Notes under the pieces: generated by a model
Databases searched by the model: none
Seen by the model: only the letters and a program-made list of their open reading frames with translations
Told to the model about the DNA's origin: nothing
Program-made: the position numbers and the translations under genes
Shown: in pieces, positions 3,381 to 22,697 of the stretch
How positions within the stretch are numbered: position 1 is the stretch's first letter
How the letters are laid out: each line of letters begins with the position of its first letter
Source: Escherichia coli
GTDB taxonomy: Bacteria > Pseudomonadota > Gammaproteobacteria > Enterobacterales > Enterobacteriaceae
DNA length: 64,000 nt
Direction: 5' to 3' (one strand)
Assembly (NCBI RefSeq): GCF_024502345.1
Contig: NZ_JALDNN010000001.1

Positions 3381-4899
3381 GATGTTCGCTCCTCAATGCG
3401 GCTTCCATCACCTGCTCCTGAGTCAGGTTATGATTTATCAGGTTGGCTTTTAGTTTCCCTTCATGCATCACTAGTACACGATCGCTAAGGCCGAGCACTT
3501 CAGGTAATTCGGAAGAGATGACAATAACGGCAATACCCTGCTGGACGAGTTGGTTAATTAATTTGTAGATCTCGTATTTCGCGCCAATATCGATACCCCT
3601 GGTGGGTTCATCAAGAATGAGAATGCGCGGGTTAAGTAACAGACAGCGAGCGAGGATCGCTTTTTGCTGATTGCCGCCGCTCAAACGTCCAATAGCAAGG
3701 TCGGGGGACGACGTTTTAACTTTGAGTTGCTGGATTGATTCCAGAATACATTTTTGCTCTGCCGCGTCATCAAGCTGGCTAATGCCACCGGTAAATTTAT
3801 TGAGTGCGGCGAGGGTAATATTTTTACCAGCCGCCATTACCGGAACGATGCCGTCGCGCTTTCTGTCTTCGGGGACCATCGCAATCCCCTGGGCGATGGC
3901 TTGCTGACAGTTACGAATATCTACCTGTTTGCCATCAATATAAATTTTTCCTTCCCATTGTCCGGGCCACACACCAAACAGGCACTGAATGGTCTCGGTA
4001 CGTCCGGCACCAACGAGTCCGGCAATACCCAGTATTTCGCCACGTTTCAGGGAAAACGAGACATCATTAACTCGTTTAATATGACGATTAACCGGATGCC
4101 ATGCCGTCAGATGTTCAATACGTAATATTTCATCTCCGGTGGTATGTGGTTCATTAGGGTAAAGCGCGGTTAACTCTCGCCCGACCATCATGGTGATAAT
4201 ATCGTCTTCACTCATTCCGGCAGCATCACGCGTACCAATGTGCTGTCCGTCGCGAATAACGCAAATCGTATCGGAAATCGCTTTGACTTCGTTGAGTTTG
4301 TGCGAAATATAAATACAGGCGATACCGTGCTGTTGTAGATCGCGAATAATATCCAGTAAAACCGACGTTTCCTGCTCAGTTAATGAGGCTGTCGGTTCAT
4401 CGAGAATTAACAAGCGCACCTGTTTATTAAGTGCCTTGGCAATTTCAACCAGTTGTTGTTGCCCAAGCCCTAAATCGCCAACGCGGGTATCAGGTGAAAT
4501 GGATAAACTGACCTGTGCGAGCAGCTTCTGACAGCGTAGCGTCATCAGGTCATAATCCATAATGCCATTGTGGGTTATTTCGTTACCCAGGAAGATATTT
4601 TCCAGCACGGTCAATTCTTTCACCAGGGCCAATTCCTGGTGAATGATGGCGATACCTTTGCGTTCGGTATCGCGGATGTGACTCGCCTGAATCTCTTCTC
4701 CCGCAAAAATAATTTCGCCTTCGTAGGAGCCATGGGGATAAATACCACACAGCACTTTCATCAGCGTTGATTTACCAGACCCATTTTCCCCACAGAGTGA
4801 GACGATTTCGCCAGCATTCAACCGCAAGCTGACGTTATCAATCGCCTTCACACTGCCGAAGGTTTTGGTAATGTTCTTCATTTCAAGTAGATAAGGCAT
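3358..4899 (-). CDS. xylG: Xylose ABC transporter ATP-binding protein XylG (duplicated ABC domains), 513 aa
   Basis: 513-aa ORF with two Walker A motifs ([18 protein letters not shown]) and LSGG signature motifs. Confidence 0.95.
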
Positions 4900-14817: not shown

Positions 14818-15097
14818 TATCGCTAAATAATACAGCAACCTTTAATAATCTTCTGCTGAATAAAGATTATCTCATATATTAATTTTATGAGGTTTTTTTA
14901 GGATTATATCAAGGAGAAGAAACAAACTTATTAAGCTAGAATAGCCACGGGTGCTTGAGACTGTTTGTCTCAGGTATTCACCGAAAGGCAGACAGAGAAA
15001 AGCCCCACCTGACTATAAATCAAAGTGAGGCTACCCTATGCCTGAACACCATAAGGTTAGCCTCTTACTCGTTGGAAATCAACACAGGGGGCTGGGA

Positions 15098-15250
15098 ATG
15101 CCGCAGAAATATAGATTACTTTCTTTAATAGTGATTTGTTTCACGCTTTTATTTTTCACCTGGATGATAAGAGATTCACTGTGTGAATTGCATATTAAAC
15201 AGGGGAGTTATGAGCTGGCGGCATTTTTAGCCTGCAATTTAAAAGAGTAA
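15098..15250 (+). CDS. hokA: Hok-family type I toxin HokA, 50 aa
   Basis: MPQKYRLLSLIVICFTLLFFTWMIRDSLCELHIKQGSYELAAFLACNLKE; single TM helix plus conserved Cys pair; 70-aa in-frame extension from 15038 also possible. Confidence 0.8.
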   Translation: MPQKYRLLSLIVICFTLLFFTWMIRDSLCELHIKQGSYELAAFLACNLKE

Positions 15251-15380
15251 GAGTCTTCGGCGGGAAGTTATTCCCGCCTTTCTTACGGCGTTGCGCATTC
15301 TCATTGCACCCAAATTTATTTTTCACAAAAATAATACTAGATTTTATTACGCGATCGATTATTTATTTCCTGAAAAACAA

Positions 15381-15410
15381 ATAAAAAAATCCCCGCCAAA
15401 TGGCAGGGAT
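15381..15410 (-). terminator. Rho-independent terminator downstream of cspA (minus strand)
   Basis: On minus strand: tccctgcc-attt-ggcgggga followed by U-run. Confidence 0.6.
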
Positions 15411-15437
15411 CTTAGATTCTGTGCTTTTAAGCAGAGA

Positions 15438-15650
15438 TTACAGGCTGGTTACGTTACCAGCTGCCGGGCCTTTAGCGCCGCTTTCGATGGTGAAGGACAC
15501 TTTCTGACCTTCGTCCAGAGATTTGTAACCATCGTTCTGGATAGCAGAGAAGTGTACGAACACGTCTTTAGAGCCATCGTCAGGAGTGATGAAGCCGAAG
15601 CCTTTGTCAGCGTTGAACCATTTTACGATACCAGTCATTTTACCGGACAT
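15438..15650 (-). CDS. cspA: Major cold-shock protein CspA, 70 aa
   Basis: [23 protein letters not shown]... exact CspA sequence with RNP1/RNP2 motifs. Confidence 0.97.
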
Positions 15651-15930
15651 AGTGTATTACCTTTAATAATTAAGTGTGCCTTTCGGCGATATGGCGTGCT
15701 TTACAGATTTTGAAGCGTTAAAGGAATGTGCACTACGAGGGGTATCAACGATAACTCTTGAAGGGACTTGCCTTACTACACTGCTTTAATGGTCTGTACG
15801 TCAAACCGTTGATGTGCATTAAGCCACGCATTGGCGGGTGATGCAACAATTATTTTTCATATTTATGATTAATCGGTTGGAAAACGGTCCTGTCATCAGG
15901 ACCGTAAACAGCAATAAAGTGGATAAAAGT

Positions 15931-16221
15931 CTATTCCATCAACTGCTTACTTAATGCCGGGTTGGCTTGAATCAAACGCATCAATTTTAGTTCGGCACTT
16001 GAAGGCTTCACGCGTCTGGATTCCCATTCCTTTACCATGGCGACTGATACGCCCAAAACCCGGGCGAAATCATCGATTTTTAACCCTGTCCCTTTTCGTA
16101 ACTGCTCAATTTCGGTACAGGACGTTGTTCTGTGCGTCAGGGTAATTTTCTGCGTTTCATCTTTAAAAACAATCTGTTCCAGGCTGCTCAACAGCTCATG
16201 CATTGGATCTTTATATTCCAT
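15931..16221 (-). CDS. yiaG: HTH-type (XRE-like) transcriptional regulator YiaG, 96 aa
   Basis: 96-aa ORF with C-terminal HTH (GLKIDDFARVLGVSVAMVKEWE). Confidence 0.85.
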   Translation of the reverse strand: MEYKDPMHELLSSLEQIVFKDETQKITLTHRTTSCTEIEQLRKGTGLKIDDFARVLGVSVAMVKEWESRRVKPSSAELKLMRLIQANPALSKQLME

Positions 16222-16654
16222 TGAAAACTCCTCAAATCACACTGCGGGATCGTGAATTGCATCGAAGCTCATTAAGAATAGTCGGGAAAAGCAGACACAG
16301 CGGGGTGAAGTCAGGGCATGCTCTGGCTATGATTCGATTCAGCCAGTCATTTAGCGTGACTTATAGCCACCTAACGATCTGATAAATGCCGATATATTTC
16401 TTACCACTCCCGGTTTGTAAAGATTTCGAAAATCTAACGTTCTGCGAAGGCGTAAATCTCGGGCTACAAAAAAGGCAACGGCAATATCATTTTTTAACAA
16501 TGAAACAACAAATTAACCTTGTTTCATTTTCTCCATGATTTTACCAGGAAGATTACGTAGAAAGGGTATCCTGCAAGCCTGTCCTGGACTATCCTTGTCA
16601 CGTCAGACACGCGTGTGTCGTTGTGCGCTTTTTTTGGGTGAAAGGAGTAAGAAA

Positions 16655-17365
16655 ATGGCGACAGGAAAGTCCTGCTCTCGCTGGTTTGCGCCTCTTGCGG
16701 CGTTATTAATGGTAGTTAGCCTGAGTGGGTGTTTTGATAAAGAAGGCGATCAGCGTAAAGCGTTTATCGACTTCCTGCAGAATACAGTGATGCGTAGCGG
16801 TGAACGTCTACCAACCCTGACTGCCGATCAGAAAAAACAGTTTGGTCCTTTTGTCTCTGATTACGCGATTCTGTATGGTTATTCTCAGCAGGTGAATCAG
16901 GCGATGGATTCCGGTCTGCGCCCGGTTGTAGACAGCGTTAACGCAATTCGCGTACCGCAGGATTACGTTACGCAAAGCGGTCCGCTGCGTGAAATGAATG
17001 GTTCGCTGGGTGTGCTGGCGCAACAACTGCAAAATGCGAAGTTGCAGGCCGATGCTGCGCACTCTGCGCTAAAACAGAGTGATGACCTGAAACCGGTCTT
17101 TGATCAGGCATTCACCAAAGTGGTAACGACGCCAGCTGATGCATTGCAACCGTTGATTCCGGCGGCACAAACTTTCACGCAACAACTGGTGATGGTTGGA
17201 GACTACATTGCCCAACAAGGTACTCAGGTGAGCTTTGTAGCAAATGGCATCCAGTTCCCGACTTCACAGCAGGCAAGTGAATATAACAAACTGATTGCGC
17301 CATTACCGGCACAACATCAGGCGTTTAATCAGGCCTGGACTACAGCAGTTACTGCAACCCAATAA
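16655..17365 (+). CDS. yiaF: Lipoprotein YiaF (DUF3053), 236 aa
   Basis: Start at MATGKS with aaaggag RBS; lipobox LSGC; ORF track start 16535 is an upstream extension. Confidence 0.8.
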   Translation: MATGKSCSRWFAPLAALLMVVSLSGCFDKEGDQRKAFIDFLQNTVMRSGERLPTLTADQKKQFGPFVSDYAILYGYSQQVNQAMDSGLRPVVDSVNAIRVPQDYVTQSGPLREMNGSLGVLAQQLQNAKLQADAAHSALKQSDDLKPVFDQAFTKVVTTPADALQPLIPAAQTFTQQLVMVGDYIAQQGTQVSFVANGIQFPTSQQASEYNKLIAPLPAQHQAFNQAWTTAVTATQ

Positions 17366-17414
17366 AGAGTAAAAGCCCGAGCGATTATCGGGCTTTACTC
17401 CACGCAGTCGCGGC

Positions 17415-18389
17415 TTAGTCCGCGACGTGCGGATTCACACAGTTCTTCTCAACCTTTCCTTGTAACGCATCAATCAAATTATCCACGGCACAGGCGGCCA
17501 TGCCATAACGCGTCTCATGGGTGGCAGATCCAATATGCGGTACTGCGACGACGTTGGCCATTGAGAGCAACGGCGAATCTACGGACAGTGGCTCTTGTTC
17601 GAAGACATCCAGCCCGGCGGCGTGAATTTCCCCTTTCTGCAATGCTGCGATCAGTGCATTTTCGTCAACCACCGGGCCACGTCCGGCATTAATGAAAATG
17701 GCGGAGGATTTCATTTTGGCGAATTGTTCTGCGCCAAACAGATGATGCGTCTCATCAGTTAACGGCAGGATCAGGCAAACGAAATCTGACTCTTGTAACA
17801 GAGTATCCAAATCGCAGTAGCGGGCGTTGAAGCGTTCTTCTGCTTCTTTATGGTGGCGGCGCGCGTTATAGAGGATGGGCATGTTGAAGCCAAAGTGCGC
17901 ACGTTGTGCCAGCGCCATGCCGATCCGTCCCATCCCGACAATGCCCAGTGTTTTATGGTGAACGTCAGTGCCGTACCAGTCCGGGCCTATGCTCGCGGTC
18001 CATTCGCCTGCTTTTACCCGTTCTGCTACCTCCACAACCCGACGAGCGGTAGACAACACCAGCGCCATCAGCGTATCGGCGACGGTTTCTGTTAATACGG
18101 TTGGCGTGTGCATCAGCAGAATTTTTCGGGCGGTAAGCGCATCGACATCAAAATTGTCATAGCCGACGGAGATCGTTGATGTGGCACGCAGTTTCGGCAT
18201 TTTTTCCAGCAATGCGGCATCTACATTCTCGTTTGAACCCAGTAAACCTTCAGCTTCGGCAAAAATTGCTGCATTTTGTTCGACGGTTTGTGGGCTGAGG
18301 TTTGCCACCTGGTGAACGGTGAAATGCTCTTGCAGGCGTTGCAGTAAATCATCAGGTAAGGCTTTGTAGAGGATAACGGACGGCTTCAT
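17415..18389 (-). CDS. ghrB: Glyoxylate/hydroxypyruvate reductase B (2-ketoaldonate reductase), 324 aa
   Basis: D-isomer 2-hydroxyacid dehydrogenase fold with GxGxxG (GIVGMGRIG); start at MKPSVILYK. Confidence 0.93.
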
Positions 18390-18492
18390 GCTTCTCTCCA
18401 TTCACTGATAAGGCGATCACCTTAGCCTGAAATATGATGAAGGAAAACTGAAGAATGCCAGGTGATTTCTGCATCACCTGGCATGAAAGGGA

Positions 18493-19152
18493 TTACAGCG
18501 GGCTTAAGGTAATTTCTACACGGCGGTTTTGCGCCTTACCTTCTGCGGTGCTGTTGCTGGCGATTGGGTTAGCCGGGCCAAGGCCCTGAGTACGGATGCG
18601 GCTGGCGTCCACGCCCTGGGTGATCAACGCGCTGGCAACGGAATCCGCACGTTGCTGGGAGAGACGCATGTTCAGGTCGTGACCACCCGTGCTGTCGGTA
18701 TAACCAATCACGTTAACCGCCGTTTTCGGATACTCTTTCAGCACCATTGCCACGCCGGTCAGGGTGTTAGCGCCCGCAGGTTTCAGGGTCGCGCTGCTGC
18801 TGTCGAAGGTCACGTTGTTCGGCATATTGAGGATAATGTTATCCCCGCTGCGGGTTACGCTAACACCAGTGCCGCGCATTTTGTCACGCAGCTTCGCTTC
18901 CTGCACATCCATGTAATAACCAACGCCGCCGCCCAGAGCTGCGCCTGCTGCTGCGCCAATCAGCGCGCCTTTACCGCGATCTTTCTTCGAAGAAGAGAGC
19001 GCACCAATACCCGCGCCCACGAGAGAGCCCAGACCTGCGCCGATAGCAGATTTACCTGCTTCGCGTTCGCCGGTGTAAGGGTTAGTTGTGCAGCCAGATA
19101 CCGCCAGAGCGCCACTCACTACGGCGGCAATAAGATAAACACGTTTCTTCAT
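18493..19152 (-). CDS. yiaD: OmpA-family lipoprotein YiaD, 219 aa
   Basis: Lipobox (VSGC), Gly-rich linker, C-terminal OmpA-like peptidoglycan-binding domain. Confidence 0.9.
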   Translation of the reverse strand: MKKRVYLIAAVVSGALAVSGCTTNPYTGEREAGKSAIGAGLGSLVGAGIGALSSSKKDRGKGALIGAAAGAALGGGVGYYMDVQEAKLRDKMRGTGVSVTRSGDNIILNMPNNVTFDSSSATLKPAGANTLTGVAMVLKEYPKTAVNVIGYTDSTGGHDLNMRLSQQRADSVASALITQGVDASRIRTQGLGPANPIASNSTAEGKAQNRRVEITLSPL

Positions 19153-19304
19153 TGTTAATCCTTAATAACCTTTTTATTCTTTGCCACGGGTTCCGTGGCG
19201 GGAGATTATGCCGCGTGAACATGAAGATTATTCCTGGGAATACTCGGAAATTTGTAAGTAATATTTAACTGCTCAATACATCTAACCTTTCAGGAGTCTT
19301 CGGT

Positions 19305-21638
19305 TTGGCCAACTCATCCTCACGATATTCCGTTCTGACTGCCGCCCATTGGGGGCCCATGCTGGTTGAAACCGACGGCGAAACCGTGTTTAGCTCGCGT
19401 GGCGCGTTAGCCACAGGAATGGAAAACTCCTTGCAGAGCGCGGTTCGCGACCAGGTTCACAGCAATACGCGGGTACGATTTCCAATGGTGCGCAAAGGCT
19501 TTCTCGCGTCACCGGAAAACCCGCAAGGCATTCGTGGGCAGGATGAATTTGTTCGCGTGAGTTGGGATGAGGCGCTGGATCTTATTCACCAACAACATAA
19601 ACGCATTCGTGAGGCTTATGGTCCGGCATCGATTTTTGCTGGTTCCTACGGCTGGCGTTCAAACGGCGTGCTGCATAAGGCCTCGACATTATTACAACGC
19701 TATATGGCGCTGGCAGGCGGTTATACCGGGCATCTGGGGGATTATTCGACCGGCGCGGCACAGGCGATCATGCCGTATGTCGTGGGTGGTAGTGAAGTTT
19801 ATCAACAGCAGACCAGTTGGCCGCTGGTGCTGGAACATAGCGATGTCGTGGTGCTGTGGAGTGCTAACCCACTCAATACGCTGAAAATTGCGTGGAATGC
19901 ATCCGATGAGCAGGGGCTTTCTTACTTTTCTGCACTGCGTGACAGCGGGAAAAAGCTGATCTGCATTGATCCAATGCGATCGGAAACCGTCGATTTCTTT
20001 GGCTATAAAATGGAGTGGGTGGCACCGCACATGGGCACCGATGTTGCGCTGATGCTGGGGATCGCCCATACGCTGGTGGAAAATGGTTGGCACGACGAAG
20101 CGTTTCTGGCGCGTTGCACCACAGGTTATGCCGTCTTCGCCTCTTATTTGCTGGGCGAGAGTGACGGAATAGCGAAAAACGCCGAATGGGCGGCAGAGAT
20201 TTGTGGTGTTGGCGCAGCGAAAATCCGCGAGCTGGCGGCTATTTTCCACCAAAATACCACCATGCTGATGGCAGGCTGGGGAATGCAGCGCCAACAGTTT
20301 GGTGAGCAAAAACACTGGATGATCGTCACGCTGGCAGCAATGTTGGGGCAAATCGGCACACCCGGCGGCGGTTTTGGTCTTTCTTACCATTTTGCCAATG
20401 GTGGTAACCCCACGCGGCGCGCTGCGGTACTCTCTTCCATGCAGGGCAGCTTGCCGGGTGGCTGCGATGCGGTAGATAAAATCCCTGTCGCCCGCATTGT
20501 TGAAGCACTGGAAAACCCTGGTGGCGCATATCAACACAACGGTATGAACCGACATTTCCCGGATATTCGTTTTATCTGGTGGGCGGGCGGTGCCAACTTT
20601 ACTCATCATCAGGATACCAATCGCCTGATCCGTGCCTGGCAAAAACCGGAGCTGGTGGTGATCTCTGAATGCTTCTGGACGGCGGCGGCAAAACACGCGG
20701 ATATCGTTCTGCCTGCGACTACCTCTTTTGAGCGTAATGATCTCACCATGACCGGTGATTACAGTAATCAGCATCTGGTGCCGATGAAGCAAGTGGTGCC
20801 GCCACGCTATGAAGCGCGTAATGATTTTGATGTTTTTGCCGAGTTAAGTGAACGCTGGGAGAAGGGCGGTTATGCACGTTTTACGGAAGGAAAAAGTGAG
20901 CTGCAATGGCTGGAAACGTTTTATAACGTTGCCCGACAGCGCGGGGCAAGCCAGCAGGTTGAATTGCCGCCATTTGCTGAGTTCTGGCAAGCCAATCAGT
21001 TAATTGAGATGCCGGAAAACCCGGACAGCGAGCGGTTTATTCGCTTCGCTGATTTTTGCCGCGATCCGCAGGCGCATCCATTAAAAACCGCCAGCGGTAA
21101 GATTGAAATCTTCTCGCAGCGTATTGCCGATTACGCTTATCCGGATTGCCCGGGGCATCCAATGTGGCTGGTGCCGGACGAATGGCAGGGCAATGCCGAA
21201 CCGGAACAGTTACAGGTACTTTCTGCTCATCCGGCGCATCGTCTGCACAGCCAGCTGAATTACAGTTCTCTGCGCGAATTGTACGCGGTGGCAAACCGTG
21301 AGCCTGTCACCATTCATCCTGACGATGCCCAGGCGCGCGGCATACAAGATGGCGATACTGTTCGGCTGTGGAACTCACGCGGGCAAATTCTTGCCGGAGC
21401 GGTCATTAGCGAGGGAATTAAACCTGGCGTGATTTGCATTCACGAAGGGGCATGGCCGGATCTGGATTTAACCGCTGACGGTATTTGTAAAAACGGCGCA
21501 GTGAACGTGCTGACCAAAGATCTCCCCAGCTCGCGGCTGGGGAATGGCTGTGCGGGTAATACGGCGCTGGCATGGCTAGAAAAATACAACGGCCCGGAAC
21601 TGACACTTACAGCGTTTGAACCACCGGCCAGCTCATAA
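19305..21638 (+). CDS. bisC: Biotin sulfoxide reductase BisC (molybdopterin oxidoreductase), 777 aa
   Basis: 777-aa ORF beginning at TTG with caggag RBS 8 nt upstream; DMSO-reductase-family sequence. Confidence 0.93.
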
Positions 21639-22047
21639 TCCAGGTGGGTAGTTGGGTTTCATCCTGCCATGCGCAATCGACAATGTGAAAACCCTGCGCC
21701 TGGTAAAAATCTATCGCCGGTTGATTTTTTTGATAAACCTCCAGCATCAGATGGGGATGGCGCTGTTGCACATACTGCATCAGCGCCTTACCAATACCGC
21801 GCCTGACGGCCTTCGGTGCGACAAACATCGCTGCCAGAAATCGGCCTTCCATAATGCTGACAAAACCGAGAAGCTTACTGTCTTCTTCCCAGACCCAGTT
21901 TTGTGCGTTGGCAAGATAGGCATCCCGCACCAGTGGAATGCACTCGCGCCAGTAATTCGCTTTTATAAAGGGATGGCCCCAGGTTGTACTTTCCAGCCAC
22001 AGTTCGAGGATCGCGGGGAGTTCTGAACGTTGCGCTTCCCTAATCAT
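21607..22047 (-). CDS. yiaC: GNAT-family N-acetyltransferase YiaC, 146 aa
   Basis: 146-aa ORF with GNAT motif (RRGIGKALM); 3' end overlaps bisC 3' end. Confidence 0.85.
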
Positions 22048-22607
22048 GGTTTATTTCCCGGATAGCAACAGCAGCCAACCACATGATCATTCACCAGCCC
22101 ACATGCCTGCATAAAGGAGTAACAGATTGTGGTACCGACAAACTTAAAACCACGTTTTTTCAGTGCCTTAGATAGGGCGTCGGAGGCGGGCGTAGATGTG
22201 GGGATTTCGCTCAACGTTGTGGCTTGTGTCACCTGTGGCTGATGATTTACAAACGACCAGACAAAGTCGGCAAACGGTTCGCCGTTCTGTTCCATTTGCA
22301 GGTACGCCCGCGCATTACCAATAATTGCCTGAATTTTCCCGCGATGGCGGATAATCCCGGCGTCCTGTACCAGTCTTTCGACATCCTCTTCCTGCATTGC
22401 GGCAACCTTCACCGGATCGAACTGATGAAAGCAGGCGCGATAGTTTTCGCGTTTTTTGAGGACGGTGATCCACGATAACCCAGCCTGCTGCCCTTCCAGG
22501 CAGATCATTTCGAACAGTTTTTTACTGTCAGTTTCAGGCACGCCCCACTCATTATCATGGTAGGCAATATAAAGCGGGTCCTGACTCACCCAGCCGCAAC
22601 GTTCCAT
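22044..22607 (-). CDS. tag: DNA-3-methyladenine glycosylase I (Tag), 187 aa
   Basis: Start at MERCGWVSQDPLYIAYHDNEWGVPE; 4-nt overlap with yiaC start; ORF track's 242-aa version is an upstream extension. Confidence 0.93.
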   Translation of the reverse strand: MERCGWVSQDPLYIAYHDNEWGVPETDSKKLFEMICLEGQQAGLSWITVLKKRENYRACFHQFDPVKVAAMQEEDVERLVQDAGIIRHRGKIQAIIGNARAYLQMEQNGEPFADFVWSFVNHQPQVTQATTLSEIPTSTPASDALSKALKKRGFKFVGTTICYSFMQACGLVNDHVVGCCCYPGNKP

Positions 22608-22697
22608 ACTTTCCCTCGCTATGTACCCGATCGTAAAAATTTCAGCCGCTTTTCTTGACGCATCGGTGAAAAAGTCAATATTTAATACAGGGCTACT

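Follow-up and report, generated by a model that had tools for sequence, protein, structure and literature searches.

Where two genes converge, do their 3' ends truly share coding nucleotides, and does such sharing let one transcription unit interfere with the other? These questions arise at the junction of bisC and yiaC in a 64,000-nucleotide stretch of Escherichia coli DNA (contig NZ_JALDNN010000001.1; hereafter the window). A preliminary description of the sequence had placed a 32-nt convergent overlap between bisC on the plus strand and yiaC on the minus strand, had concluded that the two transcripts must terminate inside each other's coding sequence, and had suggested that bisC and the tag-yiaC operon could interfere with each other through antisense transcription. 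The overlap is already known, being annotated in K-12 and catalogued as an excludon, and both double-stranded RNA (dsRNA) and Rho data for it have been published.

Gene layout at the bisC-yiaC junction

The BisC, YiaC, and Tag translations all scored above the curated NCBIfam cut-offs, with 1088.8 bits for BisC against TIGR00509 (cut-off 1017.55; residues 13-775), 265 bits for YiaC against NF007853 (cut-off 125; residues 1-145 of 146), and 435 bits for Tag against NF007678. Both the BisC and the YiaC profile matches end no more than one to two residues from the C-terminus. Identical bisC and yiaC coordinates were found in the RefSeq/PGAP annotation of FDAARGOS_943, which is 100% identical to the window, and also in that of strain M8, and the RefSeq annotation of K-12 MG1655 (yiaC 3713652..3714092, bisC 3714061..3716394) contains the same 32-nt overlap. 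By open reading frame coordinates and RefSeq annotation, the position and length first described for the overlap are exact (Table 1). Within it, codon position 1 of bisC lies opposite position 1 of yiaC, position 2 opposite 3, and position 3 opposite 2, and each stop codon falls inside the coding sequence of the partner. At the other end of yiaC, its start overlaps the tag stop by 4 nt (ATGA), and the two genes therefore form one operon with tag first.

Table 1. Features of the bisC-yiaC-tag region, in coordinates of the window
Feature	Position	Strand	Description and basis
bisC CDS	19305..21638	+	Biotin sulfoxide reductase, 777 aa; TTG start, TAA stop 21636-21638; ORF and RefSeq
yiaC CDS	21607..22047	-	GNAT lysine N-acetyltransferase, 146 aa; TAA stop 21609-21607; NF007853 equivalog, RefSeq
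tag CDS	22044..22607	-	3-methyladenine DNA glycosylase I, 187 aa; ORF, NCBIfam, RefSeq
Dual-coding overlap, 32 nt	21607..21638	both	BisC residues 768-777 and stop (+); YiaC residues 137-146 and stop (-)
Codons for YiaC residues 133-140	21628..21651	-	Last GNAT beta-strand in the AlphaFold2 model; residues 137-140 inside the overlap
Untranslated 3' extension of tag-yiaC RNA	21355..21606	-	Antisense to bisC; ends in a Rho-dependent termination region, peak about 21355
Candidate hairpin	21522..21544	-	UUCCCCAGC-CGCGA-GCUGGGGAG, then AUCUUUGGUC; 63-85 nt beyond the yiaC stop, inside BisC codons; consensus scan
T7 run	21725..21731	+	87-93 nt beyond the bisC stop, inside yiaC
RNase III duplex, 21 bp, captured by p19	21619..21641	both	yiaC-sense AUUAUGAGCUGGCCGGUGGUU, bisC-sense CCACCGGCCAGCUCAUAAUCC; PMC7373196

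The co-directional overlap of tag with yiaC varies by genus, being 4 nt (ATGA, with a Tag of 187 aa) in Escherichia and one metagenomic relative and 20-23 nt (Tag of 192-193 aa) in Salmonella, Citrobacter, Enterobacter, Kosakonia, Lelliottia, and others (at approximately 4001..4023 in loci L009-L017). Start calls for bisC are unstable; TTG is annotated at 19305 in the window, and other callers arrive at proteins of 759 aa in Enterobacter and 804 aa in Kosakonia. BE104 carries an engineered bisC deletion with an FRT scar of the pKD3/pKD4 type (3764..4009 of locus L002, equivalent to approximately 19305-21607 of the window). The deletion starts after Val51, leaving 51 bisC codons, and ends 8 nt short of the yiaC stop, an endpoint from which we infer that its designers preserved yiaC across the overlap. 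The start after Val51 may, in our own reading, reflect an older and shorter bisC gene model.

Elsewhere in the window, the transposase of the IS4-like element ISEc60 (25019..26209; 15019..25000 of locus L019) directly follows yhjX and is succeeded by slyD-yheV-kefB-kefG-yheS...crp, and in K-12-like strains eptB comes next after yhjX. On the K-12 map, the slyD-crp region lies about 230 kb away. The presence of ISEc60 after yhjX together with the displaced slyD-crp region points to a large rearrangement bounded by IS elements, one breakpoint of which falls within the window, in a strain identical to FDAARGOS_943.

Both protein tails are encoded within the overlap

The BisC protein ends in ...L-T-L-T-A-F-D-P-P-A-S-S and carries the tail motif LTAF[D/E]PP. 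An alignment of its last 113 residues with E. coli TorA (VTAFNGPV; ...EKYNGTVEQVTAFNGPV) and with the Rhodobacter DMSO reductase (LTGFVAPK; ...EKYTGPAVTLTGFVAPK) extends in each case to 2-3 residues from the chain end, and the tail is therefore ancestral to the DMSO-reductase family and is no read-through extension. YiaC has nearly the length of its paralog YjaB (146 versus 147 aa), and residues T135, W136, M138, W140, Q144, and T145 are invariant among 22 homologs. In the AlphaFold2 model of YiaC (mean pLDDT 94.5), residues 133-140 form the last beta-strand inside the fold, and residues 141-146 form a low-confidence tail, with a mean pLDDT of 58 for the last six residues. Judging by this model, at least codons 137-140 would be structurally needed, even though they lie inside bisC.

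Substitution patterns were compared across 12 lineages, using 568 nt of bisC and 409 nt of yiaC as flanks. Invariant columns made up 66% of the overlap compared to 45% of the bisC flank and 35% of the yiaC flank, and 32-nt intervals as invariant as the overlap amounted to 0.2% of the bisC flank and 2.4% of the yiaC flank. The difference was sharpest at third codon positions, which were invariant at 5 of 11 bisC sites and 8 of 10 yiaC sites within the overlap versus 3.7% and 7.4%, respectively, outside it. This invariance in both genes indicates that each frame constrains the synonymous sites of its partner. Of the bisC third positions, the six that vary fall on YiaC residues 139, 141-143, and 146, which are themselves variable, and on the yiaC stop codon; the invariant ones lie opposite YiaC I137, M138, W140, Q144, and T145. 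We also considered the YiaC tail as a pure passenger of the BisC codons and rejected this, as the bisC synonymous sites opposite Q144 and T145 are invariant, indicating that YiaC imposes constraint too. When the more constrained frame is taken for each column type, about 61% of the overlap is expected to be invariant, close enough to the 66% observed that coding alone accounts for its conservation. The overlap is nonetheless among the most conserved 32-nt intervals of the region, and an extra constraint at the RNA level may exist.

Conservation of the overlap across genomes

The preliminary description had proposed that conservation be checked across E. coli, and the bisC-yiaC junction was found ungapped and with at least 95% identity in 5419 of 5426 complete genomes of the species. 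A contig search with YiaC gave five Escherichia loci, and other genera were reached through distant YiaC homologs (52-68% identity, 146-148 aa) and their contigs. The overlap was retained in all 15 nonredundant loci, spanning Escherichia to Kosakonia, at a length of 32 or 38 nt and with YiaC identity down to 52%, and in every locus fetched through the distant homologs tag-yiaC faces bisC with an overlap. Five Escherichia lineages, E. albertii and E. whittamii among them, carry the 32-nt form in an unchanged register even though substitutions have occurred inside it. The same length was present in Salmonella, Citrobacter amalonaticus, Enterobacter ludwigii, Pseudescherichia, and two metagenomic enterics. 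The 38-nt form was found in Kosakonia, Lelliottia, and Metakosakonia.

The composition of the two stop codons bears on this stability of length. The yiaC stop is the complement of the BisC Leu768-Thr769 codons, with CTT-A giving TAA and CTC-A giving TGA, and the YiaC Ile137-Met138 codons (ATT or ATC, then A) in turn supply the bisC stop, TAA or TGA, as their complement. The 38-nt variant arises because a CTG codon for the BisC leucine removes the yiaC stop, so that yiaC extends by two codons to the previous Leu-Thr.

Were one stop or reading frame wrongly annotated, the genes would have no real overlap. Our analysis yielded no point in support of such an artifact, and several observations speak against it: the reading frames fix both stops, the family-profile matches reach the last residues, the BisC and YiaC tails are conserved as protein, the synonymous sites of each gene are constrained by the other frame, and the overlap length recurs identically across genera. 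A different true stop or start for either gene, named at the outset as the result that would remove the overlap, was not found, as both frames match their family profiles to the C-terminal end. The probability of an annotation artifact is accordingly negligible. Chance is not at issue either, because homology reaches the last residues in both frames and the substitutions follow a dual-coding pattern. As far as sequence comparison can tell, the overlap is true dual coding with no mis-called stop.

Transcript ends and termination signals

Each mRNA must reach its own stop codon, which is located in the other gene, and the two transcripts therefore overlap. The early deduction that they end inside each other's coding sequences is right, and it has been demonstrated experimentally for tag-yiaC, for which a Rho-dependent termination region lies inside bisC. 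Adams et al. (2021; PMC7815308, Supplementary file 2) placed the peak of this region at MG1655 position 3714344 (+), classed it as antisense to bisC, and assigned it a Rho score of 7.30 (p = 5.5e-14). Upstream and downstream coverage was 90/23 without bicyclomycin and 60/112 with the inhibitor. Through the MG1655 coordinates, the peak maps 252 nt beyond the yiaC stop on the minus strand, a coarse position given that peaks were scored in 800-nt windows. These published data show that transcription of tag-yiaC continues antisense into bisC for about 250 nt before Rho halts it. The C/G ratio of the RNA is 1.35-1.69 over approximately the first 200 nt beyond the yiaC stop, a modest enrichment compared to a median of 1.0 and a 90th percentile of 1.56 in the window. 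With its bicyclomycin-sensitive drop in coverage inside bisC and its excess of C over G beyond the yiaC stop, the tag-yiaC extension resembles other Rho-terminated antisense transcripts; the region on the yiaC strand is one of several hundred in that study, mostly classed as antisense, and shows no notable difference from them (PMC7815308). Transcription of bisC would likewise be terminated by Rho, within yiaC and tag in the antisense direction.

An intrinsic terminator could instead be embedded in the BisC codons P-S-S-R-L-G, where the candidate hairpin listed in Table 1 would end tag-yiaC and produce a sequence-programmed transcript overlap of about 85 nt. The consensus scan describes a 9-bp stem with six G-C pairs, followed by AUCUUUGG, a poor U-tract. 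Most genera have the stem, compensatory changes affect one of its pairs in three sequences, and the covariation score of 0.100 exceeds the 0.049 of shuffles and was reached by 3 of 500 of them, for a stem that lies within highly conserved BisC codons. Against this, the stem is degraded in Salmonella, Pseudescherichia, and one metagenomic relative, and pairing reaches 88% compared to 84.5% in shuffles, again within those highly conserved codons. The scan for promoter and terminator consensus sites found 7 terminator-like sites in the region compared to 4.9 +/- 2.3 in shuffles, which equals expectation, and promoter-like sites were likewise no more frequent than in shuffled sequence. In addition, the curated Term-seq data of Adams et al. 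(PMC7815308) list no 3' end for yiaC, for bisC, or antisense to bisC, and the Rho signal lies further downstream. We consider it unlikely that this hairpin is the terminator of tag-yiaC, and Rho-dependent termination within bisC is the reading that we retain.

No other termination signal came to light at the junction. The overlap is devoid of an intrinsic terminator, with no A-tract/hairpin/U-tract element in or adjoining it. The 201-nt stretches beyond the two stops fold with z-scores of -0.35 and -0.23, indicating no unusual structure, and an Rfam scan of 18000-24000 at E <= 1 returned no family match apart from one chance snoRNA-like match elsewhere. Neither bisC nor yiaC is present in the SMRT-Cappable-seq supplements. 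The T7 run beyond the bisC stop was considered as a terminator tail for bisC and rejected, since only the E. coli lineage has it.

The SMRT-Cappable-seq literature describes intrinsic terminators that act in both directions between convergent genes. The bisC-yiaC junction is similar to these in having convergent ends that must both terminate in a shared stretch; it differs in that its sole hairpin has a weak U-tract and no listed Term-seq 3' end.

RNA pairing and the excludon question

Evidence for pairing of the two RNAs comes from RNase III products captured by p19. Huang et al. (2020; PMC7373196, Table S3 sheet 'E 21-bp') list a 21-bp duplex labelled 'bisC yiaC' with 184 and 90 reads, and its strands match the window exactly, the yiaC-sense strand at 21619-21639 (-) and the bisC-sense strand at 21621-21641 (+). 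Published data hence show that the bisC and yiaC RNAs form duplexes in small amounts, which RNase III cleaves. The duplex amounts to 2.2 and 1.1 RPM, near the cut-off of 1 RPM, a dsRNA level that 87% of genes reach or exceed in the same study; among the matches listed, the pair was not seen in the high-abundance p19 dsRNA clusters (PMC7373196). A second p19-captured RNase III duplex lies inside bisC at 20510..20532 (261 and 170 reads), about 1.1 kb beyond the yiaC stop on the yiaC strand, suggesting either that some antisense RNA extends well past the mapped Rho region or that an internal antisense promoter exists.

The pair has also been classified by transcript coverage. ExcludonFinder (2025; PMC12288877, Table 1) includes yiaC-bisC among 165 convergent excludons of MG1655, on the criterion that RNA-seq coverage overlaps in at least 50% of 58 data sets. 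With overlapping transcripts and RNase III-processed dsRNA of low abundance in published data, bisC and yiaC do have the descriptive properties of excludons; the trait that defines these, mutually exclusive expression, is hypothetical here. Nevertheless, the listing adds no independent evidence, because overlapping coding sequences automatically give overlapping transcripts. Like the excludons of the Listeria paradigm (PMC12288877), bisC and yiaC are opposite-strand neighbors with overlapping transcripts and an RNase III duplex, and the pair is explicitly listed as such; unlike them, it has a short antisense extension (about 250 nt) that is curtailed by Rho, and its dsRNA is near background.

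Could the overlap have been retained because convergent transcription provides mutual repression, whether by colliding RNA polymerases or by RNase III acting on the paired 3' ends? A selected excludon of this kind would agree with the place of yiaC-bisC in the MG1655 excludome, with the RNase III-cut duplex from the overlap, with the reach of tag-yiaC RNA into bisC, and with conservation of the arrangement over the Enterobacteriaceae. Excludon pairs are, moreover, more syntenic than other neighbors, which argues for function in general (PMC12288877). However, transcript overlap here follows automatically from the overlap of the coding sequences, dual coding accounts for the sequence conservation, the duplex stands at a level that most genes attain and outside the abundant clusters among the matches listed, and Rho confines the antisense extension to about 11% of bisC. 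Selection for mutual repression is therefore improbable in our estimation; if it were true, a repair enzyme for biotin and methionine sulfoxides and an operon for DNA-alkylation repair and lysine acylation would be expressed in a mutually exclusive manner. Antisense interference between bisC and tag-yiaC, as first suggested, is a possibility only. More doubtful still is a stronger version in which the overlap is an actively maintained reciprocal switch, with tag-yiaC and bisC interfering in cis and the conserved hairpin and invariant overlap acting as extra RNA-level signals. Such a switch, if it existed, would set DNA alkylation repair and a lysine acetyl/lactyl-transferase against the repair of oxidized biotin and methionine.

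The window contains a second convergent overlap of coding sequences, 12 nt long, between hokA (15098..15250, +) and an annotated 19-aa ORF (15239..15298, -). The pair ysaE-hokA is listed as a convergent excludon by ExcludonFinder (PMC12288877).

Origin and meaning of the overlap

We conclude that the junction is very probably a genuine and ancient dual-coding, tail-to-tail overlap of two unrelated genes, for which no dedicated regulatory function is needed. The overlap would be locked in, since neither BisC nor YiaC could lose its C-terminus, and the building of each stop from conserved codons of the partner would help to fix it. It is thus most likely kept because both protein tails are needed and because the stops are made of the partner's conserved codons. 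RNA pairing and cleavage by RNase III would then be by-products of the overlap, and since transcription of both units is weak, pairing together with polymerase collisions would alter expression little if at all.

Comparison with a survey of E. coli places the locus among ordinary convergent overlaps. Lillo and Krakauer (2007; PMC2174442) counted 58 such overlaps, the commonest phase at lengths of at least 5 nt being (123:132), with 49%, and predicted intrinsic terminators in only 20% of the genes concerned. Similar to these pairs, bisC and yiaC are bona fide opposite-strand genes with shared 3' ends, the commonest phase, and stops within partner codons, and like approximately 80% of the genes in this class they have no convincing intrinsic terminator. 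In contrast to the modal overlap of 4 nt (PMC2174442), theirs spans 32 nt and has kept its length in at least nine genera, and unlike a recent extension by stop loss, both tails are under selection. The bisC-yiaC pair is therefore a typical, rather long, and unusually well conserved member of the convergent-overlap class.

The finding has little significance beyond bookkeeping, apart from offering a clean and well-conserved natural case of convergent genes whose ends are dual coding. For genetic work on the locus, the last 32 nt of bisC must be left untouched in any deletion or recoding of that gene if yiaC is to stay intact, as in BE104, and synonymous recoding of either tail alters the other protein. 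The pair could also be a convenient test case for the regulatory cost or benefit of ordinary convergent overlaps.
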